Positions 294-30,823 of a stretch of 64,000 nt of DNA are shown piece by piece. The translations under genes were made by a program, and so were the position numbers. Positions within the stretch are counted from its first letter, which is position 1. Every line of letters starts with the position of its first letter. The stretch is from an uncultured Bdellovibrionales bacterium (GTDB taxonomy: Bacteria; Patescibacteriota; Minisyncoccia; Moranbacterales; UBA9337), in the NCBI GenBank assembly GCA_964605525.1, contig CAZSCV010000004.1, positions 38,667-102,666 of the forward strand. Direction: 5' to 3'. The notes beneath the pieces were generated by a model. That model did no database searches, had not been told where the DNA came from, and worked only from the letters and a program-made list of their open reading frames with translations.

Positions 294-330
294 TCCTCCC
301 CTCCTCGGGAGGAGGGGCTGGGGGAGGTGC
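294..330. repeat. GC-rich palindromic mini-element, copy 1 (cctcccctcctcGGGaggaggggctggggg)
   Basis: Local GC spike in AT-rich DNA; perfect hairpin arms cccctcctc/gaggagggg; related copy inside uvrC at 19166-19205. Confidence 0.5.
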
Positions 331-6595: not shown

Positions 6596-6622
6596 TATGC
6601 AAAAAAATATTTTTGCATATTA
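6596..6622. promoter_or_regulatory. perfect 11-bp-arm palindrome atatgcaaaaa-aat-atttttgcatat, ~175 bp upstream of the TasA-like gene
   Basis: Seen directly in the sequence; candidate operator. Confidence 0.3.
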
Positions 6623-6753
6623 AATTAGATCGGTTTTGCCATTTGACTCCCCGCGCAATAATGGGCAACCATTTTTAGCTTTCTGCGCGGATCATAGCCT
6701 TCTAATTTTCTTTTTTATTTTGTACTCTCATTATCTCAACTGAGATTTTATAG

Positions 6754-10409: not shown

Positions 10410-12422
<2,013 letters not shown>

Positions 12423-15022: not shown

Positions 15023-17890
15023 TTACAAATATCTTCCGGTCCAGCTTTTCTTGTCTTTTTCAAGTTTGTCCGGGGTTCCTTGAAAAACAATTTTTCCTCC
15101 ATTGTCTCCTCCGTCCGGACCGAGTTCAACCACCCAATCAGCATTGCGGATAACATCAATATTATGTTCAACAGCAATAACAGTATTTCCCTTATCCACC
15201 AAGGCGTCCAGAACTTGGAGCAATTTTTTCACATCCGCAAAATGCAATCCGATTGTCGGTTCATCCAAAATATACAACGTTTTCCCTGTTGATTTTCGCG
15301 CCAACTCCGTCGCCAATTTGATGCGCTGGGCTTCTCCTCCGGAAAGATTGGTAGCGCTCTGCCCCAGCTTCAAATACCCCAACCCCACTTCATCCATAGT
15401 TCTCAATTTTTCATAAATCAAAGGATAGCGCTTGAAAAAAACCATCGCATAACTCACGCTCATATCCAAAACCTCGGCAATATTCACTCCTTGATATTCA
15501 ATCTCAAGTGTTTTTTTGTTATATCTAGTTCCTCCACAAACCTCGCATTTGACATACATATCCGGAAGTAAATGCATTTCTATTTTTCTCATTCCGTCCC
15601 CCTGACAAACCTCGCAACGTCCACCTTTCATATTGAAACTGAAACGGCTGGAAGTATATCCGCGATTCTGCGATTCTTCCGTCTGCGCAAAGATTTCCCG
15701 GATGTGGGAAAACAGTCCGGTATAAGTAGCGGCATTTGACCGCGGAGTTCTTCCGATCGGACTCTGACTGATATTGATAACTTTGTTCACATTTTCAATT
15801 CCTTTCAATTCTTTGTGTTTTCCAACGCTCGCTCTTGCTCCGTAAAAATGCTTGGAAAGCGCCTTTGCCAAAATGTCATTCACCAAGGTCGATTTTCCGC
15901 TTCCGCTCACACCGCAAACTACCACGAATTTTTCCAGCGGAATTTTGACGCTGATATCTTTCAGATTGTGTTCGCAAGCCTTAATTATTTCAATATTATT
16001 CTTGTTTCCTACGCGGAATTTTTTCTTGTCGGAAACTTTCTTTTTTCCGGAAATATACAAAGCAGTGGAGGTTTTCGATTTTTTCAAACTTTCATAATCA
16101 CCTTGAAAAATAAGCTCCCCGCCTTCTTCTCCGGCGCCCGGTCCCATATCAATCACCCAATCGGCCTCTCGGATGAAATCACTGTCGTGCTCAACGACAA
16201 CCAGTGAATTTCCTTCATCCCTTAAGGATTTGATTGTTTTAATCAGTTTTTCCGTATCCCGGCTGTGCAATCCGATTGAGGGCTCATCCAAAACGTAAAT
16301 TATACCCATCAATTGGGATTTTATTTGCACTGCCAAGCGGATTCTTTGCGCTTCCCCCCCGGAAATAGTTTTGGTTCCCCGCGACAAACTCAAATATTCC
16401 AATCCCACATTTTCCAAAGCTACCAGCCTTTCAATTATTTCCTTTATTAAAACCGCGGAAATTTCCTTATTGCGAATACTTTTATTTTTTTCTAAAAATT
16501 TTTGCAAATATTCTTTCAGATTGGATATGCTCATACTCGCAAAATCATCAATGGATTTTCCATCTATCAGCACATTGAGATATTCCTTTTTCAAACGTTT
16601 TCCCTGGCAAGAAGAACAAACTTTGGCAACCATATATTTCTCAATCTCATTGCGGACATAATCCGAATTTGTTTCCAAATATCTTCCTTCCAGAATAGGA
16701 ATTACTCCCCGGAACCTTTCAACTGATTTATGCGCGCCATCCAATTTGTTTTCCGGTCTGGCTTGGCTCAAATCACTTCCTGATTCTCCCCGCAAAATAA
16801 TATTCAGGTTCTGCACAGAAAGCTTTCCAATCGGAACATTAAGAGAAAATCTGTGTTTCCTGGCCAAATCACTCACCATTGTCCCGTATCCGTTTTCTCC
16901 CATCCTTCCTCCGGCCTTGCTCCACGGGCGGATCGCTCCTTCTGCCAAGGAAAGTTTTTTATTTGGAATAATCAAATCCGGATCAATTTCCATCTTTATA
17001 CCCAAACCGCTGCAATCGCAACAAGCTCCTTCCGGGTTATTAAAAGAAAAATGGCGCGGATTGATTTCTTTTATTTTTGTCTGGCAATTCTGGCAAATAT
17101 ATTCTTGATTGTATTGCAATTCTTTTTCTTGATTTACCAATATAATCATTGAGCCGTCTCCCAATTTCAAAGCTGTTTCAATTGAATCGGAAATCCGTTC
17201 CTCATCCAAATTCTTCTTGTTCAATTCAATCCGGTCAACCACAATATCCACATCGATAGACATTTTTTCCGTAACAATCATAAGCGCCTCGCTCACTGAT
17301 TTTATTTTGTTCTCAAATCTTACCCGGGCATATCCCAATTGCTGGATTTGGCGCAAAACATCCCTTGGGTTTTTTTCCTTTCCTCCATAACGAGAAAGAA
17401 TGGCAATTTGCGTTCCGGAAGGATAAGAAGACACTTCCGCAAGTATTTCTCTTTTTTCTTTTTTCTCCATCAAAACTCCGCATTGCAAACAATGCGGGTC
17501 GCCAACTTTGGCAAATAAAATTCGCAAATAATCATATATTTCCGTAAGGGTTCCAACTGTCGAGCGCGGACTGCGCACCACGCTTTTTTGATCAATGGAA
17601 ATTGTCGGACTGAGATTTTCAATCTTATCCACATCCGGCTTGGAGGACACATCCAAAAAATTGCGCGCGTAAGAAGAAAGCCCTTCCATATACCGGCGAT
17701 TTCCTTCGGCATAAATCGTATCAAACGCCAAGGAAGATTTTCCAGATCCGGAAAGCCCTGTAATAACAACGAATTTGTCGCGCGGAATATCAACGTCGAT
17801 ATTGCGCAAATTATTAACTTTGGCTCCCCGAACAATAATATGGCTTTTATCTTTTTTATTTTCTTTGGAGAGATTTTTCTTTCCGGACAT
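15023..17890 (-). CDS. uvrA: excinuclease ABC subunit A, divergent paralog (UvrA-like 1)
   Basis: Two ABC ATPase modules ([14 protein letters not shown]… and [14 protein letters not shown]…), zinc-finger Cys pairs; 955 aa. Confidence 0.9.
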
Positions 17891-18031: not shown

Positions 18032-19345
18032 TTATTTCAAAAATTCCCTACCTCTCACCTTGCGATGGTAAGAAATCGCAAACCGGTGCGCCTCGTCGGT
18101 TATTCTTTTGATTAAATTTCTGTCATTTAATATCTCCACAAATTGATTTCGAAATCTGGATTTGGAAATTGGAAATTGTTTAGAAATTAAAAATTGGAAA
18201 TTAGAAATTTTTCTGGTCGGTCCTTTTGCCACCGCCACAATCGGAATATCAATCACCAGCTCTTTCCATAATTTTTCCGCCATATTCAAATGCCCGATGC
18301 CTCCGTCAAGAAAAACCAGATCGGGTTTCTGCCAATTGTTTTTGAATCTTCTAATCAAAATTTCCCTCATCATCCCCACATCATCCGCGCCTGCAATGGT
18401 TTTTATTTTAAATTTTCGATACTGCGATTTATCCGGCTCAAATTTTCCGGAATTATCATCAAACACAATCATTGAACCGACCGCATGCTCTCCGGAAATA
18501 TTAGAAATGTCGTACGCCTCAATTCGAATTAATTTTGAATTTATCTGGAAATTATCTTCTCTTTCAGAGACAAGAGCGATATCCTGAATATGCCTTAATG
18601 CAAATATTTTTCTTTTTATTCCGCCGGCTTTTTCAAATTCTTCTTTCTTTGAAAACTCCGCCATTTCCTTTTCCATTTTTTTTATCAAACTTTTCCTTTT
18701 CCCCTCCAAAATCATCCTGATTCCCCGGATATTTTTCGCGTAATCTTTTTTTGAAATTTTACCCGCATACGGTCCGGGGCACATTCCGATTTGAAAATCC
18801 AAGCATCCCTTTTCCGTTTTCTGCTTATTTGAATGAAAGGGAAAGATTCTCCGGATTATTTTAAGCGCGATTTCCATTTGTTTTTTGCTCGTATACGGAC
18901 CATAAACAGCTTTCGGTTCCATTAGATTTTTGGCTTTTAAGCTTTTTGAATTCAAATCGGTTTTGCGAAAAATCATAATACTGGGAAATAATTCTCGGGT
19001 AATAACAATATAGCAAAATGACTTGTCGTCTTTTCCCAGCACATTATATTTCGGCTGGTGTTTTTTTATCAGGTTGGCTTCCAAAATTAAAGCATCCAAA
19101 ACCGATTCAGTTTCGATTATTTTTACATTAGAAACCTGATGAATCATCTCCTCAATCGGTCTCAGACCTCCCCCTCTCCCCCCGGGAGAGGGTTGGGGTG
19201 AGGGAACAAAATACGACCCTACTCTACTTTTCAAACTAGTGGCTTTGCCGATATATATTATCTTTTTTTTCGCATCAAAAAAAACATACACCCCCGGCGC
19301 ATCAGGAAAATTTTTTATTTTATTTTTGAGCATTGGCGAGTTCAC
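18032..19345 (-). CDS. uvrC: excinuclease ABC subunit C (short form without C-terminal HhH)
   Basis: GIY-YIG N-terminus (GVYVFFDAKKKIIYIGKATSLKSRV), UvrB-interaction region, RNase H-like endonuclease domain; 437 aa. Carries an in-frame GC-rich insertion (PSPQPSPGGRGGGLRP). Confidence 0.85.
   Translation of the reverse strand: MNSPMLKNKIKNFPDAPGVYVFFDAKKKIIYIGKATSLKSRVGSYFVPSPQPSPGGRGGGLRPIEEMIHQVSNVKIIETESVLDALILEANLIKKHQPKYNVLGKDDKSFCYIVITRELFPSIMIFRKTDLNSKSLKAKNLMEPKAVYGPYTSKKQMEIALKIIRRIFPFHSNKQKTEKGCLDFQIGMCPGPYAGKISKKDYAKNIRGIRMILEGKRKSLIKKMEKEMAEFSKKEEFEKAGGIKRKIFALRHIQDIALVSEREDNFQINSKLIRIEAYDISNISGEHAVGSMIVFDDNSGKFEPDKSQYRKFKIKTIAGADDVGMMREILIRRFKNNWQKPDLVFLDGGIGHLNMAEKLWKELVIDIPIVAVAKGPTRKISNFQFLISKQFPISKSRFRNQFVEILNDRNLIKRITDEAHRFAISYHRKVRGREFLK
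19166..19205. repeat. GC-rich palindromic mini-element, copy 2, in frame inside uvrC
   Basis: cctccccctctccccCCGGGagagggttggggtgagg; hairpin arms ctctcccc/gggagag; ~70% identical to copy 1 at 294-330. Confidence 0.5.
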
Positions 19346-19360
19346 AATATGTTCCTTAAT

Positions 19361-22240
19361 TTATTTTTTCCGCAACGCTTCGCGCAAGTATTTTCCGGTA
19401 TAGCTTTCTTTGTGCCATTTGGCGACTTCTTCCGGGGTGCCGGCAACCACCAGCTTTCCTCCGCCATCGCCGCCTTCCGGTCCCAAATCGATTATCCAAT
19501 CGGCAGACTTGATCACATCCATATTATGCTCAATAACAACCACCGTATTTCCCGCATCCACCAATCGATTAAGCACATCCAGCAATTTTTTGATATCTTC
19601 AAAATGAAGTCCGGTTGTCGGTTCATCCAAAATATACATCGTATTTCCTGTGGCGCGCCGGGAAAGTTCACTGGCAAGCTTGATTCTTTGCGCCTCTCCG
19701 CCGGAAAGCGTCGTTGCATTCTGCCCCAATTCAATATATCCCAATCCGACTTCCTCCAAAACTTTGAGTGGATCATGAATTTGCGGATAACTCTCGAAAA
19801 ATTCCTTCGCCTCGGAAACTGTCATCGCCAAAACATCGGAAATATTTTTTCCTTTATATTTTACTTGCAACGTTTCCCTGTTATACCTTTTTCCCTTGCA
19901 AACATCGCAAGGCAAATACACATCCGGCATAAATTGCATTTCAATTTTCAAAAATCCTTCTCCTTGGCAATTGTCGCACCTGCCTCCGGCAACATTGAAA
20001 GAAAATCTTCCCATGCCATAACCTTTCTCCCGCGCATCTTTGGTGGCGGAAAAAAGCTGGCGAATCGGAGTAAACAGTCCGGTATATGTCGCAGGATTTG
20101 ACCGCGGCGTGCGTCCGATCGGCGACTGGTCAATCATAATCACTTTGTTAATATTTTCCAGTCCGACAATTTCCTTGTGCTTTCCCGGCACTTCCAGAGA
20201 ACGGTGCAACTTATTCGCCAAGGATTTGTACAAAGTTTCTTCCACTAAAGTCGATTTTCCGCTTCCGGAAACACCCGTCACGCAAACAAAACTCTTAAGA
20301 GGAAATTGCACATTTATGTTTTTCAAATTGTGGCTCGAAGCTCCACGCACAATCAAAGCCTTCTTGTTTTTCATCGACCGGCGCGAATCAGGAACTGCGA
20401 TTTCCATTTCCCCGCTCAAATATTTTCCTGTTATGGAATTTTTATTTTTCATTACTTGTTCAGGAGTTCCTATGGCCACGATTTCTCCGCCATGCTTTCC
20501 CGCTCCCGGTCCGATATCCACCAAAAAATCCGCTTCGCGCATTGTTTCTTCGTCATGTTCAATTGCAATCACGGTGTTTCCGATATCCCGCAAATGTTTC
20601 AGCGTTTCCAAAAGTTTCCGGTTGTCCCGCGCGTGCAATCCAATTGACGGCTCATCCAGGATATACAAAACACCAACCAGTTGCGAACCAACCTGCGAAG
20701 CCAGACGGATTCTTTGCGATTCCCCGCCGGAAAGAGTAAACGCGGTCCGATGCAAGGAGATATAATTCAATCCCACATCGCTGAGAAATTTCAAGCGATT
20801 AATAATTTCTTTGACAATTCTTCCGGCAATCAATTCTTCCTGATGGTTCAATTTCAATTTCCGAAAAAAATCCAGACAATTATCAATACTTATCTGCGAC
20901 ACTTCCACGATATTTTTCCCGCCAGCCGTTACCAGTAAAACCTCTTTTCGATAACGGCTTCCTCCGCAAGTCGAGCAAGGCTTTTGGGACATATATTTTT
21001 CAATATCATTTCGCACCGCATCAGAAGCTGTTTTTTGATAACGATCTTCGAGCCAGCCGGAAACGCCTTTCCAATCCAAATGAAAACTTCTCGTCCCGCC
21101 GCGAAAATGATATTTTACATCAATCAATTCTCCGCCCTCTTTCCCGTAAAGAAGCAGATCGAGATATTTTTTCGACAAATCGCGCAAACGTTTGTTATCG
21201 GGAATATGGTAAAAATTAGTCACGGCGCGAATAACCGTCCCCTGGTAATTATTCGGCTTGTAGCTCCAAGGAAGAACTCCGCCTTCATTAATGGTTTTGT
21301 TTTCATCCGGGATAATCAAATTTGTGTCGATTTCCTTTTTTACTCCCAGTCCTTCACAAGCACTGCATGCTCCGAAGGGAGAATTGAAGGAAAAAAGCCT
21401 CGGTTCCAGCGGAGGAAATTCAATTTCATGAACAGGACAGGAAAGATTTTGATTAAAAACGACCTCCCCTTTCTTTCCCATTTCTCCCTTTTCATTCCTT
21501 TTTCCTCTTTCTTCTTTTTCATCCAATTTTATTTTCACCAGCCCTTCCGATAATTTCAACGCCCTTTCCACGCCTTCAAAAATTCGAGAAATATTTTTTT
21601 CTCCAATTTCCACTTCATCGATAATAACATCTAAAAAATGTTTCTTATTTTTTTCCAATTCAATTTCCTTCCATTTTTCCAAAGAAATTTTTTTTCCGTC
21701 AATATATGCTTTCGAAAGTCCCATTTTCCACAAATTTTCCAAAAGCGCTGAATATTCCCCCTTTCGTCCCCGCACTATCGGAGAGATAATTTTTATTTCT
21801 TTTTTTTCTCCCAAATCCAAAATTCGATCAACGATTTCATCCGTTGAAAGGCGTTTTATTTCCCGACCGCAAATCGGACAGTGCGGCATTCCGATTTTCG
21901 AATACAGCAAGCGCAAATAATCATGAATTTCCGTAATCGTTCCGACTGTCGAACGCGGATTGTGAGAGACTGATTTCTGGTCAATGGAAATTGTCGGCGA
22001 AAGCCCTTCGATATGATCCACATCCGGCTTATCCATCTGTCCCAAAAACTGGCGTGCATAAGATGACAAGCTTTCCAAATACCTTCTTTGCCCTTCAGCA
22101 AAAAGCGTATCAAAGGCCAAAGTACTTTTTCCTGATCCGCTTATTCCCGTAAAAACAATCAGCTTGTCGCGGGGAATATCAAGGTCGATGTTTTTCAAAT
22201 TATGCTCCCTTGCTCCGCGAATTGTTATTTTTTTGTCCAT
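19361..22240 (-). CDS. uvrA: excinuclease ABC subunit A (canonical-like UvrA)
   Basis: [54 protein letters not shown]… closely parallels canonical UvrA; 959 aa. Confidence 0.95.
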   Translation of the reverse strand: MDKKITIRGAREHNLKNIDLDIPRDKLIVFTGISGSGKSTLAFDTLFAEGQRRYLESLSSYARQFLGQMDKPDVDHIEGLSPTISIDQKSVSHNPRSTVGTITEIHDYLRLLYSKIGMPHCPICGREIKRLSTDEIVDRILDLGEKKEIKIISPIVRGRKGEYSALLENLWKMGLSKAYIDGKKISLEKWKEIELEKNKKHFLDVIIDEVEIGEKNISRIFEGVERALKLSEGLVKIKLDEKEERGKRNEKGEMGKKGEVVFNQNLSCPVHEIEFPPLEPRLFSFNSPFGACSACEGLGVKKEIDTNLIIPDENKTINEGGVLPWSYKPNNYQGTVIRAVTNFYHIPDNKRLRDLSKKYLDLLLYGKEGGELIDVKYHFRGGTRSFHLDWKGVSGWLEDRYQKTASDAVRNDIEKYMSQKPCSTCGGSRYRKEVLLVTAGGKNIVEVSQISIDNCLDFFRKLKLNHQEELIAGRIVKEIINRLKFLSDVGLNYISLHRTAFTLSGGESQRIRLASQVGSQLVGVLYILDEPSIGLHARDNRKLLETLKHLRDIGNTVIAIEHDEETMREADFLVDIGPGAGKHGGEIVAIGTPEQVMKNKNSITGKYLSGEMEIAVPDSRRSMKNKKALIVRGASSHNLKNINVQFPLKSFVCVTGVSGSGKSTLVEETLYKSLANKLHRSLEVPGKHKEIVGLENINKVIMIDQSPIGRTPRSNPATYTGLFTPIRQLFSATKDAREKGYGMGRFSFNVAGGRCDNCQGEGFLKIEMQFMPDVYLPCDVCKGKRYNRETLQVKYKGKNISDVLAMTVSEAKEFFESYPQIHDPLKVLEEVGLGYIELGQNATTLSGGEAQRIKLASELSRRATGNTMYILDEPTTGLHFEDIKKLLDVLNRLVDAGNTVVVIEHNMDVIKSADWIIDLGPEGGDGGGKLVVAGTPEEVAKWHKESYTGKYLREALRKK

Positions 22241-23204: not shown

Positions 23205-25166
23205 TTATTTTCCTTGAATTTTTCGCAATTGATAAATCTCATCGCGAACAAGCGCCGCTCTTTCAAAATCCAAATTGCGCGCCGCTTCTTTCATTTCTCT
23301 TTCTTTATTTTTAATGTATCCGTTTACATCTTCCAATGTTTCCAGCCTGACAAAATCCTGCGGAACTTGAGGATTGATTTCATGATCCACAATTGATTGA
23401 ATTTTTTTCTTGATTGTCTTGGGCGTTATTTTGTGTTTTTTGTTATATTCTTTTTGTAATTTTCTCCTCCGATTTGTTTCATCAATCGCTTTTTTCATTG
23501 AACCCGTAATCCTGTCGGCATATAAAATCACTCTTCCGCTCACATTGCGCGCCGCCCTTCCAATTGTCTGAATTAGGGAGGTTTCACTGCGCAAAAATCC
23601 TTCCTTATCGGCATCCAAAATCGCCACCAGGGAAACTTCCGGCAAATCCAATCCTTCGCGCAAAAGATTCACTCCAACCAAGGCATCAAATTTCCCGCGC
23701 CGCAAATCTTCCAAAATGGAAATTCGGTCCAACGTATCCACTCCGCTGTGCAAATATTCCGATTTGATTTCATTTTCCTTGAGAAATTCCGCCAAATCTT
23801 CCGCCTGTTTTTTGGTGAGTGTTGTAATCAGTACCCGTTCTTTTTTCTTTGAAACTTTTTTGATTTCTTCCAAAATATCTTTTACTTGGCTTCGCGTCGG
23901 ACGCATTATCAATTCCGGATCAATCAATCCTGTTGGACGTATAATCTGTTCTACCATTTCTCCTTCTGTTTTTTCATTTTCATACCGGCTTGGCGTAGCG
24001 CTGGTAAAAATAACCTGGTTTATTCTTTTTTCAAATTCGGAAAATTTCAAAGGACGATTATCCAGCGCACTGGGCAAACGAAATCCATTTTCCACCAAAG
24101 CTTCTTTGCGCGCCTTGTCTCCGGCATACATCGCTCCGATTTGCGGAACGGTCACGTGCGATTCATCAATTACCAGTAAAAAATCATCTCCAAAATAATC
24201 GATCAGGGTATATGGAGCTTCGCCGGACTTTCTGCCAGTTAAAAATCTGGAATAATTTTCAATTCCGTTGCAATATCCCAATTCGCGCATCATTTCAATA
24301 TCGTGTTTTGTCCGGCGTCGAAGCCTTTCCGCTTCCAATATTTTTCCTTTTTTCTCAAGATATTCCACTCTCACTTTCATCTCTTTTTCGATGTTTTTCA
24401 ACACGCCTTCCATCATCGGCTCCGGAACAACAAAATGCTTGGCGGGAAAAAATATCGCCTTTTCCAAAACGGATAATTTTTCTCCTGTCAAAAAATCGTA
24501 TTCGGCAATATTTGCGACTTCGCCATTTTCCAATTCAACGCGCGTTATCACTTCGCGGCTGGGAGGAATAATCTCGATAATATTTCCGATCGAACGGAAT
24601 TTTCCGCGCGCCAGAATATCACTGCGCTGATAATGCATTTCCACCAGTCTTTTCATCAATTTCTCCCTGTCAGTTTTTTCTCCGACTGAAATTGCCAGTG
24701 TCGTGTCCTGATAATATTCCGGACTACCCAAACCGTAGATACAAGAAACACTGGCGACAATAATCACATCGCGGCGCGACAAAACCGCCGCTGTGGCGCT
24801 GTGGCGCAAGCGGTCTATTTCTTCATTTATCTGCGCTTCTTTTTCAATATATGTATCCGATGATGCGATGTATGCTTCCGGCTGGTAATAATCATAGTAG
24901 GAAACGAAATATTCCACTGCGTTTTTTGGAAAGAAAACGCGGAATTCTTGCACTAATTGCGCCGCCAAAGTTTTGTTCGGAGCAATCACCAGGGTCGGTT
25001 TTTGAATTTTTTCGATTACGTTGGCAATCGTGAATGTTTTTCCCGATCCGGTCACACCCAAAAGCGTCTGGAATTTTTTCCCGGATTTCATTCCCCGTGT
25101 CAACTTTTCAATCGCCTGAGGCTGATCCCCCGCCGGCTTGAATTTTGAATTTATCTTAAATTTCAT
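23205..25166 (-). CDS. uvrB: excinuclease ABC subunit B
   Basis: GDQPQAIEKL…GVTGSGKTFT helicase motifs; C-terminal UvrB/UvrC interaction helix (ERAALVRDEIYQLRK). Confidence 0.95.
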   Translation of the reverse strand: MKFKINSKFKPAGDQPQAIEKLTRGMKSGKKFQTLLGVTGSGKTFTIANVIEKIQKPTLVIAPNKTLAAQLVQEFRVFFPKNAVEYFVSYYDYYQPEAYIASSDTYIEKEAQINEEIDRLRHSATAAVLSRRDVIIVASVSCIYGLGSPEYYQDTTLAISVGEKTDREKLMKRLVEMHYQRSDILARGKFRSIGNIIEIIPPSREVITRVELENGEVANIAEYDFLTGEKLSVLEKAIFFPAKHFVVPEPMMEGVLKNIEKEMKVRVEYLEKKGKILEAERLRRRTKHDIEMMRELGYCNGIENYSRFLTGRKSGEAPYTLIDYFGDDFLLVIDESHVTVPQIGAMYAGDKARKEALVENGFRLPSALDNRPLKFSEFEKRINQVIFTSATPSRYENEKTEGEMVEQIIRPTGLIDPELIMRPTRSQVKDILEEIKKVSKKKERVLITTLTKKQAEDLAEFLKENEIKSEYLHSGVDTLDRISILEDLRRGKFDALVGVNLLREGLDLPEVSLVAILDADKEGFLRSETSLIQTIGRAARNVSGRVILYADRITGSMKKAIDETNRRRKLQKEYNKKHKITPKTIKKKIQSIVDHEINPQVPQDFVRLETLEDVNGYIKNKEREMKEAARNLDFERAALVRDEIYQLRKIQGK

Positions 25167-29638: not shown

Positions 29639-30823
29639 TCACCAAGCTTTTTTCAAGATATTGTTGATGGTTTTTTCGTCGTCGCAGGAATATTTTTTTG
29701 AAGGCGAATAAAAATTTTTCTTACCGCCATAACATCCGCCGTTATCTTTCGGAAGTACCGCCAAAATCGGCAGCATAAACCCCTTTCCTTGGGAAGTGAA
29801 AAAATCGTGCAGGTCCCGCAATGTTTTTCTTCTTTTGTCATCATCCATTCTAGCGAAAGTACTCATATCATCCCCAATTTGCGGTGTCCAATCGAGATGC
29901 AAGAAAACATTATTGGCTTTCTTGGCAAACTTGTCATTCCAGAGGAGCGCCCAGCACCAATCCCCTTCTTTTTTCCACCAGCGAGAAAAACACGGACCGT
30001 TTTCCAATGTTCCATCAGAGTACAATCCCACGCCGCCCTCAATAAAATCAAAATTACGCAAATATTTTTCATTAGTAATGTCATTGGTCTGCGCGCCGAC
30101 AACAATTTTCATTTTTTTGGAATCAGCATACTCCCTCATATCCGCAATTATTTTTGTAATCCTTGGATTGTTCAAATCGCCCCCCTCTTGCAAAAAAACC
30201 TGTCCAAAAAGAAAACTCTGGATCCCCATATCCATTGCTTGCTCGGTGATATATTTCAAATACGCGCGATATTCTCCTGAATTAAATGACGGAATGCAGA
30301 TATTTTTCTTCCAATGATCGGGATTGTTGTCTTGGCACATTTTTTCAAAATCAAACTTGCGGTCTTCCTCCGGATACCGATAGAGAACTTTTGTGTTGAC
30401 CGCCTCAGCAATAAACATTCCGTACACGATATTCTCTTTTTCAATTTTCGCTTTGATTTTTTTGGCTTTTTCAAAATCCGGCTTGTCCGCCCAAGTCTCC
30501 AGCGCGCGATGAAGATAATAGCAATCAGACCGGTTAACCACGTTGATCATTTCCTTGGTATCGCCTCCGAATCCGGAGAGAATTCCATCCGCCACGCACC
30601 CTTGTTTTTTCATTCTTTCAATATTGGGCGGAAGCGGAGGAGGCAGTGGCGAGGGAAACAAAACAGGAACCGCTTCAGCGACCTTCTTTTTTGCGATTAT
30701 AATCATCTGCGAAAATTCCGGAGAAAAATTTCCGCTTTCTTTGACCACAACAAAAACAACTGCCGAAGACAAGGCAACTAAAATCAAAGTTCCAACCCAA
30801 GTATTAATAATTTTGTTTTCCAT
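29639..30823 (-). CDS. hypothetical exported protein with Pro-rich linker (PSPLPPPLPP)
   Basis: N-terminal TM (MENKIINTWVGTLILVALSSAVVFVVV), then a Pro-rich linker encoded by a GC-rich patch (30627-30668), then a ~330-aa domain of unknown family. Confidence 0.45.
   Translation of the reverse strand: MENKIINTWVGTLILVALSSAVVFVVVKESGNFSPEFSQMIIIAKKKVAEAVPVLFPSPLPPPLPPNIERMKKQGCVADGILSGFGGDTKEMINVVNRSDCYYLHRALETWADKPDFEKAKKIKAKIEKENIVYGMFIAEAVNTKVLYRYPEEDRKFDFEKMCQDNNPDHWKKNICIPSFNSGEYRAYLKYITEQAMDMGIQSFLFGQVFLQEGGDLNNPRITKIIADMREYADSKKMKIVVGAQTNDITNEKYLRNFDFIEGGVGLYSDGTLENGPCFSRWWKKEGDWCWALLWNDKFAKKANNVFLHLDWTPQIGDDMSTFARMDDDKRRKTLRDLHDFFTSQGKGFMLPILAVLPKDNGGCYGGKKNFYSPSKKYSCDDEKTINNILKKAW

Follow-up and report, generated by a model that had tools for sequence, protein, structure and literature searches.

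How does a short, very GC-rich palindrome come to be translated as part of a conserved repair enzyme in an AT-rich genome, and to what kind of element does it belong? The question is raised by the uvrC gene of an uncultured bacterium of the Patescibacteriota (assembly GCA_964605525.1, contig CAZSCV010000004.1, positions 38,667–102,666). This stretch of 64,000 nucleotides, called the window below, is AT-rich (38% GC) and its closest protein matches are in Candidatus Moranbacteria (Patescibacteria/Candidate Phyla Radiation). A reading made from the DNA letters and their open reading frames (ORFs), the sequence-only reading, had proposed that a GC-rich mini-element interrupts the GIY-YIG domain of UvrC in frame. 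By its sequence design the element is a BoxC/PIT/TM intrastrand-triplex repeat and not a new family, and it is probably a solo copy that is tolerated in a permissive loop of the protein.

The inserted element and its design

The element lies in the GIY-YIG domain where the sequence-only reading had placed it. Its parts are as follows:

18032–19345, minus strand: uvrC, encoding 437 amino acids with GIY-YIG, UVR and RNase H-like endonuclease domains
19166–19204: inserted element, 39 nt, about 80% GC; the plus strand carries the G-rich triplex motif and its complement is the uvrC coding strand
19172–19180, plus strand: pyrimidine arm, CCCTCTCCC
19184–19192, plus strand: purine arm, GGGAGAGGG, complementary to the pyrimidine arm across the 3-nt loop CCC (19181–19183)
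19195–19204, plus strand: G-rich third segment, GGGGTGAGGG, after a TT spacer; a mirror repeat of the purine arm

Read on the plus strand the layout is ACCTCC-CCCTCTCCC-CCC-GGGAGAGGG-TT-GGGGTGAGGG. The two 9-nt arms are perfectly complementary, and the third segment has the design of a class II triplex (G·G, T·A and A·A triads; PMC4666352) with no mismatch over a 7-nt core. The pattern occurs once in the window, against 0.09 matches expected, and only three 36-nt stretches in the 64 kb reach 75% GC or more (the uvrC element, 292–333 and one in uvrB). The description as a small, repeated palindromic element that keeps the reading frame stood; what the palindrome view missed was the G-rich mirror segment.

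Both window copies, this one (19172–19202) and an intergenic one (298–327), were recovered without mismatch by a purpose-written triplex-motif finder. Thirty shuffled windows gave 0–2 triplex motifs of any composition each, most of them none. The hairpin is strong but not stronger than those of shuffles of equal G/C-rich composition, and the fold of the mRNA strand has a z-score of −0.19, so that folding energy alone proves nothing. Rfam gave no family match for the element at the gathering threshold, and a permissive scan returned only chance matches to microRNA or snoRNA families (E ≥ 0.28).

The 39 nt (19204 to 19166) are exactly codons P48–G60 of uvrC and encode the Pro/Gly-rich peptide PSPQPSPGGRGGG. 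The in-frame Pro/Gly-rich loop of the sequence-only reading was thereby upheld, at a length of 13 residues and not 15, the RP that follows PSPQPSPGGRGGG being conserved in the orthologues and outside the insert. Compared with the basal loop, UvrC is longer by about 8–10 residues. Five of the six frames of the element are free of stop codons and would give P/S/L- or G/E/R-rich peptides, which explains the survival of so many insertions.

Membership in the BoxC/PIT/TM family

The repeat was described in the 1990s as BoxC, rediscovered as PIT (potential intrastrand triplex) and renamed TM, and is present in more than 260 genomes (PMC4666352). Escherichia coli K-12 has 23 copies, listed in Table 1 of Holder et al. 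2015 (PMC4666352), among them CCCTCTCCCTGTGGGAGAGGGCCGGGGTGAGGGC. Sequences from E. coli form a class II intrastrand triplex in vitro by circular dichroism and nuclear magnetic resonance; they show neither promoter nor terminator activity nor an in vivo triplex footprint, have been linked to local sequence instability, and are reported as "always located intergenically" and as not associated with mobile elements (PMC4666352). A second group has described the same repeats as G-quadruplex/hairpin switches, intergenic only, and similar archaeal repeats are likewise intergenic. In this literature the function is unsettled, no means of spread is described and the repeats are reported between genes only.

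It is the G-rich mirror segment that identifies the uvrC element as a member. The element contains an exact match to a cross-phylum 19-mer, GGAGAGGGTTGGGGTGAGG, and to the E. coli TM consensus. The genome collection has the 19-mer GGAGAGGGYTGGGGTGAGG in at least 120 stretches, from many phyla; among the matches listed are Pseudomonas, Dyella, Bradyrhizobium, cyanobacteria, Bacteroidota, Planctomycetota, Chloroflexota, Nitrospirota and Omnitrophota. In nearly all of the listed matches a CCCTCTCCC-like arm and a loop of 4–7 nt stand before the 19-mer, and the flanks are unrelated. The uvrC copy agrees with the family consensus CCCTC[TG]CCC...GGGAGAGGG-(TTA/CCG/YT)-GGGGTGAGGG, and both window copies have the family design of pyrimidine arm, complementary purine arm and G-rich mirror block (class II). 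The one family trait from which the uvrC copy departs is the intergenic location, which in the literature is descriptive and not a structural requirement. One related genome (L006; L numbers denote the loci compared) has six triplex motifs in 21 kb. The spread of the family over many phyla goes beyond the sequence-only reading.

Related sequences in the window

That reading had also named a palindrome at 294–330 and a half-copy at 30627–30668. The former proved to be a real intergenic relative of the same design:

298–329, plus strand: second family member, intergenic, CCCCTCCTC / GG / GAGGAGGGG / CTG / GGGGAGGTG
298–306: CCCCTCCTC
309–317: GAGGAGGGG
321–329: GGGGAGGTG

These segments match without mismatch and can be extended to nine triads. 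The copy shares the three-part design only and does not match the family consensus. By plain sequence its resemblance to the uvrC element is only marginally above background (best non-self match, local score 25, the next scoring 21). It is the sole other GC-rich palindrome of the window. A terminator-like hairpin precedes it and the next real ORF follows; the ORFs of 75–85 amino acids that cross it are spurious.

The supposed half-copy at 30627–30668 did not hold up. Its local score of 14 ranks 176th or lower among 1598 tiles, the motif finder found no triplex motif in it, and it lacks a hairpin, its folding energies of −8.0 and −6.3 kcal/mol being matched by shuffles. The resemblance is chance at background level, and the segment is simply a Pro-rich linker. 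A third GC-rich island, CGCGGCGCGACAAAACCGCCGCTGTGGCGCTGTGGCGC at 24770–24807, lies inside uvrB and is probably not an insertion, since this UvrB has the usual length of 653 amino acids.

The insertion site among UvrC orthologues

The alignment of UvrC orthologues that the sequence-only reading proposed was made with the window protein and its 120 closest database homologues (53–78% identity). The insert is absent from most of them and is hence a true insertion. Between the conserved SYF and RP-IE, 81 of the 121 proteins have a short loop of 5–9 residues. Longer inserts of clearly different kinds are found in the other 40, the window's included: PSPxPSPxGRGG (11 proteins), PL(I/V)RGEG (3), TDxNLRI-like (9), GLSPxxGDLVP (4), NIQNTKYQ (3), SALRAPSPxGRR (3) and others (7). 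At least six other repeat-derived insert types occupy the same loop in other lineages, a second finding beyond the sequence-only reading, and the site is a hot spot of insertion. More distant UvrC relatives from metagenomes have loops of 8–11 residues, and where the insert lies, the solved structures of the UvrC N-terminal domain (1YD6 and 1YCZ) lack about 10 residues in the alignment.

At the DNA level several orthologue inserts are strong palindromes (TCTCCCCTTAATAAGGGGAGA in L006; GGGGACTAAGTCCCC...GGGGACTTAGTCCC in L007 and L009). The insert of L008 consists of two hairpins and that of L010 is a long imperfect hairpin; L003 and L004 have AT-rich direct repeats, which form no fold.

The 11 carriers of the PSP...GRGG state are so placed on a neighbour-joining tree that at least nine changes are required, and the nearest relatives of the window protein carry other insert types. 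In the five carriers read at the DNA level the element starts 3, 3, 3, 1 and 2 nt after the codon of Phe46, with AA/AG or CAG spacers, and the C-rich strand is the coding strand in all five. The differing offsets and spacers point to at least two or three separate insertion events, or to compensated indels. The closest relative has the same insert, and has it on at least 24 contigs that were assembled independently, so that the insert is no assembly artefact. Counted among the 120 closest homologues of each protein, insert instances number 122 in UvrC, 14 in UvrB and 15 in GyrB.

UvrC varies in length at other places too. The first beta-hairpin of the GIY-YIG domain has a variable site behind YVF (residues 20–22), with inserts such as LSEAKSASGG and SAQGGFRKA in seven homologues (P0002, P0003, P0116, P0055, P0048, P0085 and P0091), and further inserts recur after query residues 141 and 269. 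In several relatives a perfect 16-bp palindrome, TCCGCCAGCTGGCGGA, recurs in frame (as PPAGG), both in uvrA and close to the 3' part of uvrC, and is a second family of frame-preserving mini-palindromes. It is present in the closest relative of the window (…QFPPPAGGSK…) and absent from the window uvrC (…KQFPISKSRF…). Its sites are:

L001, 11155–11170
L007, 4626–4641
L008, 11254–11269 and 11425–11462
L010, 11927–11942
L194, 1275–1290 and 2417–2432

Position in the protein

A model of the window UvrC was computed with AlphaFold2 from an alignment of 56 sequences (mean predicted local distance difference test, pLDDT, 79). In it, residues 50–61 have a pLDDT below 50 and are predicted as coil between a helix at 38–44 and a helix at 63–66. 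The model puts the insert at the surface, in a disordered loop that joins helices 1 and 2 of the GIY-YIG domain, and the structural check suggested along with the first reading thus agrees with that reading. The only other long segment of low confidence, 255–270, corresponds to the second insertion hot spot of the orthologues, between HIQDIAL and RIEAYD.

Pfam still detects the GIY-YIG domain across residues 17–101, and all residues without variation in the family are present, Y20, Y31, K34, R41, E89 and N101 among them. By work on the UvrC of Thermotoga maritima, they match the catalytic residues of this domain. Pfam found no C-terminal helix-hairpin-helix domain in the window protein, which at 437 amino acids is short.

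Copies in other genes

The search for GC-rich triplex motifs covered 854 kb in total, made up of the window together with ten orthologue and 80 metagenome loci, all related, and gave 22 distinct motifs. When the loop-1 site by which the loci had been ascertained is excluded, 13 of the remaining 17 TMs are in frame in uvrA, uvrB or uvrC, and none of the 17 is in any other coding gene of the 854 kb. They include one uvrA site shared by two genomes, the same element in both uvrA paralogues of L186, an inverted pair in uvrB of L006 and two further uvrC sites. The shared TM of the two L186 paralogues stands at a seemingly equivalent position. Outside these loci the canonical motif is found in frame in genes for UDP-galactopyranose mutase (Glf), a MiaB-like enzyme, the HsdR subunit of a type I restriction system and the helicase PriA, in low-GC genomes of the Bacteroidota and other lineages.

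Association with DUF559 genes

Some copies adjoin genes for DUF559 proteins. According to a published survey, DUF559 shares a clade with Vsr and with a homing endonuclease of a group I intron. The loci concerned are:

L077, 2400–2860: DUF559 domain in PriA, arranged TM (minus strand), DUF559 domain, TM (plus strand), all in frame
L006, 8993–9487: DUF559 gene adjoining uvrC, with a TM-like hairpin directly upstream
L245, 350–800: the same arrangement in the sister of L006
L018, 780–1400: DUF559 gene or 3' fragment abutting a TM, as also in L036 (both among 120 TM-ascertained loci)
L211 (E. coli K-12, 1351204–1351760): ycjD (DUF559), which ends inside a decayed TM hairpin and is followed by a duplicated 3' fragment of ycjD

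The TM beside the DUF559 gene of L006 (CCCCACCTCCAATCCTCCCCTT..AAGGGGAGG) is nearly identical to the in-frame TM of uvrC site 2 in that genome and belongs to its subfamily, and TM number 9 of Holder et al. lies 168 bp downstream of ycjD.

A reciprocal test started from 33 DUF559 genes on viral or proviral contigs (L212–L244, from IMG/VR), which were chosen by protein similarity alone. Inverted repeats of 22–66 nt bracket 27 of the 32 testable genes (z > 4 relative to shuffles). Downstream, 17 of 33 flanks contain the strict TM-like motif, and upstream 8 of 33 do; among the controls it was found in 1 of 49 segments taken 680–900 nt away and in 0 of 660 shuffles. The commonest layout, TM (plus), ORF, TM (minus), is that of the inverted TM pairs of E. 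coli and of the uvrB pair of L006.

We tentatively suggest, as a reading that may well prove wrong, that the BoxC/PIT repeats are the terminal inverted repeats, and the solo or paired remnants, of a mobile cassette that encodes DUF559 (Vsr-like) and occurs in many phyla. Cassettes with a DUF559 endonuclease of the Vsr-like PD-(D/E)XK type would be the autonomous form, and solo or paired TMs their remnants or non-autonomous derivatives; the endonuclease might mobilise the repeats or home into TM pairs. As part of the same tentative reading, cassette and remnants could insert in frame into essential genes (uvrC, and also uvrA, uvrB, PriA, Glf and HsdR) and so reshape loops of the proteins.

Several points weigh against this proposal. 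DUF559 is present in only 3–4 of the 120 TM-ascertained loci, and no DUF559 gene was found in the 64-kb window. Most E. coli TMs are solo, as the 3' remnant of ycjD is a single-locus feature (1–2 places per genome, in 3378 of 5426 genomes); a search for DUF559 remnants beside other E. coli TMs ended with this remnant confined to one locus. Neither the uvrC site nor the DUF559 cassettes inspected showed a target-site duplication by eye.

Origin of the uvrC insert

The account that we consider probable is that a solo BoxC/PIT/TM copy is tolerated in a permissive loop of uvrC. By the route that we infer, a TM copy would have landed in the gene and would have survived through its open frames, the disordered loop and the insertion-tolerant UvrC of this lineage, the element being translated as the 13-residue Pro/Gly-rich loop. 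The insert would be selectively near-neutral, and a function of its own within uvrC is improbable. Against this account stands, besides the lack of a visible target-site duplication, the conservation of the element. An identical run of 86 nt extends across it between two uvrC genes that are 78% identical, and its C-rich half keeps six of seven synonymous third positions, mostly C, relative to a 64%-identical orthologue in an AT-rich genome. The conservation of the element DNA exceeds the expectation for a neutral old insert and could result from recent or repeated insertion, from gene conversion by other copies or from selection at the DNA level. In addition, all 11 PSP...GRGG carriers have the repeat in the same orientation, which chance alone would not predict, and with only two copies in the 64 kb a multi-copy status in this organism is at most putative. 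The 86-nt run gives no clear evidence of transfer, because the 5' 300 nt of uvrC are better conserved anyway. Recombination around the element was considered and rejected, the window and its closest relative being colinear over 13 kb at 81.5% identity.

Selection would have an object if the hairpin or triplex were a functional cis-element of uvrC, acting on pausing or stability of the mRNA or, as a DNA structure, modulating transcription or sensing damage. Such a role would suit the better conservation of the element DNA relative to the gene, the presence of differing strong hairpins at the same codon position (−26.8 kcal/mol in L006, −32.5 in L007 and −52.2 in L009) and the orientation of the repeats, whose C-rich strand is the coding one in 19 of 24 cases where open frames predict 60% (p=0.04). 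However, two thirds of the orthologues do without an insert, several inserts at the site do not fold (−0.5 kcal/mol in L003, −7.0 in L004), the mRNA-strand fold is, as noted, no better than that of shuffles, and the E. coli PIT shows neither promoter nor terminator activity nor an in vivo triplex footprint (PMC4666352); we regard a cis-acting role as unlikely. Far less credible still is that nothing was inserted and that the loop grew by slippage or compositional drift, its resemblance to the repeat being coincidental. Microsatellite-like expansions of this same loop do occur in other lineages (ATAC[CT]AA heptamers, CGAAT-type repeats), but a stretch of about 80% GC in a gene of 38% GC, with an exact 19-nt match to a motif of many phyla and the matching pyrimidine arm, and with so few triplex motifs in shuffled windows, effectively refutes this explanation. 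The preponderance of uvr genes among the copies could also mean that TM repeats are drawn to, or retained in, excision-repair genes, for example as non-B DNA that is a substrate of UvrABC. The 13 of 17 TMs compare with 41% of the bases (binomial p=0.0035), and GC-rich palindromes number 52 in repair genes and 16 in other coding sequence. However, these events lack independence, orthologous sites and inverted pairs being counted repeatedly, and in other phyla TMs sit in the Glf, MiaB-like, HsdR and PriA genes. The DNA-level hint of an excess peculiar to repair genes found no support in the protein control, in which UvrB has about as many insert instances as GyrB (14 and 15). Given these figures, the 122 instances in UvrC and its higher divergence, the excess is mainly that of a fast-evolving, indel-tolerant UvrC, perhaps also of UvrA, and not of excision repair as such; an attraction to repair genes is accordingly improbable in our judgement.

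Other features of the window

The uvrC gene lies between two full-length uvrA paralogues:

15023–17890, minus strand: uvrA paralogue
19361–22240, minus strand: uvrA paralogue

The order uvrA-uvrC-uvrA2 is kept in related loci. Relative to the nearest sequenced relative, amino acid identity is 78% for UvrC, 98% for UvrB (23205–25166) and 92% for GyrB (10410–12407). The protein database holds a 100% match to the GyrB of the window and lacks its exact UvrC. Two RNA features were also noted:

37382–37613, minus strand: group I intron (Rfam, 86 bits) in a tRNA cluster, flanked by tRNA-Met (37167–37240) and tRNA-Val (37639–37713)
6619–6711, minus strand: match to the c-di-GMP-II-GAG riboswitch aptamer (43.1 bits, gathering threshold 40)

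ARAGORN called no interrupted tRNA around the intron.

Comparison with known systems and significance

With the BoxC/PIT/TM repeats of the literature (Bachellier et al.; Hoyne & Maher 2000, 2002; PMC4666352) the uvrC element shares the three segments CCCTCTCCC-loop-GGGAGAGGG-YY-GGGGTGAGGG, the G/C richness, the dispersal of copies with unrelated flanks and the length (34–37 nt in E. coli). It differs in standing in frame in a conserved enzyme domain of an AT-rich member of the Patescibacteria, whereas the E. coli copies are intergenic, and the family here appears linked to DUF559 cassettes, whereas no link to mobile elements was reported (PMC4666352).

The Rickettsia palindromic elements (RPEs; Ogata et al. 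2000, reviewed in PMC10969869) are likewise palindromic repeats found in frame in unrelated housekeeping genes at positions compatible with the fold, and the copies described here share with them the insertion into unrelated protein genes at structurally tolerated places. RPEs, found in Rickettsia only, are about 100–150 bp long and code for a conserved peptide of some 30–50 residues, whereas the uvrC element has 39 bp, a triplex design and a cross-phylum distribution; no sequence relationship between the two was seen. Repetitive extragenic palindromes (REPs) are recognised by a hairpin with the tetranucleotide GTAG or CGTC at one end together with a REP-associated tyrosine transposase (RAYT) gene (PMC3733652). 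Neither window copy has a GTAG or CGTC hairpin end; RAYT genes were not searched for.

Miniature inverted-repeat transposable elements and their autonomous parents offer another parallel, namely many short non-coding copies and a few longer ones with a nuclease gene between inverted ends, and the inverted TM pairs of E. coli and of uvrB in L006 resemble internally deleted cassettes. The parallel is limited by the absence of a visible target-site duplication, by DUF559 not being a known transposase and by movement never having been observed. In yeast mitochondria, GC clusters are short GC-rich palindromes in a very AT-rich genome, some of them within coding sequence, and some of their derivatives are bypassed by the ribosome. 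They differ from the uvrC element in sequence, organelle context and host range, and no evidence of bypass was seen for the latter.

Our literature search, of incomplete coverage, found no paper that ties these repeats to insertion into coding sequence, to Patescibacteria or to DUF559. Two findings appear to be new relative to the published work: translated in-frame copies in conserved enzymes, especially of gene-dense Patescibacteria, and a systematic association of TM repeats with DUF559 endonuclease genes.

BoxC/PIT/TM repeats, among the most widely conserved short repeats of bacteria, enter coding sequence, and the gene-dense genomes of Patescibacteria retain those copies that arrive in frame within flexible loops. 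The RPEs have in this a bacterial counterpart, one that belongs to a family spanning phyla. There is also a trap for annotation, peptides of the PSPxPSPxGRGG type and similar ones being scars of repeats and not motifs. The position of DUF559 genes between inverted repeats, E. coli ycjD included, yields a concrete hypothesis for the movement of the repeats that can be tested in E. coli; if the tentative cassette reading is true, it would explain the origin and spread of the BoxC/PIT repeats, a question that dates from the 1990s.

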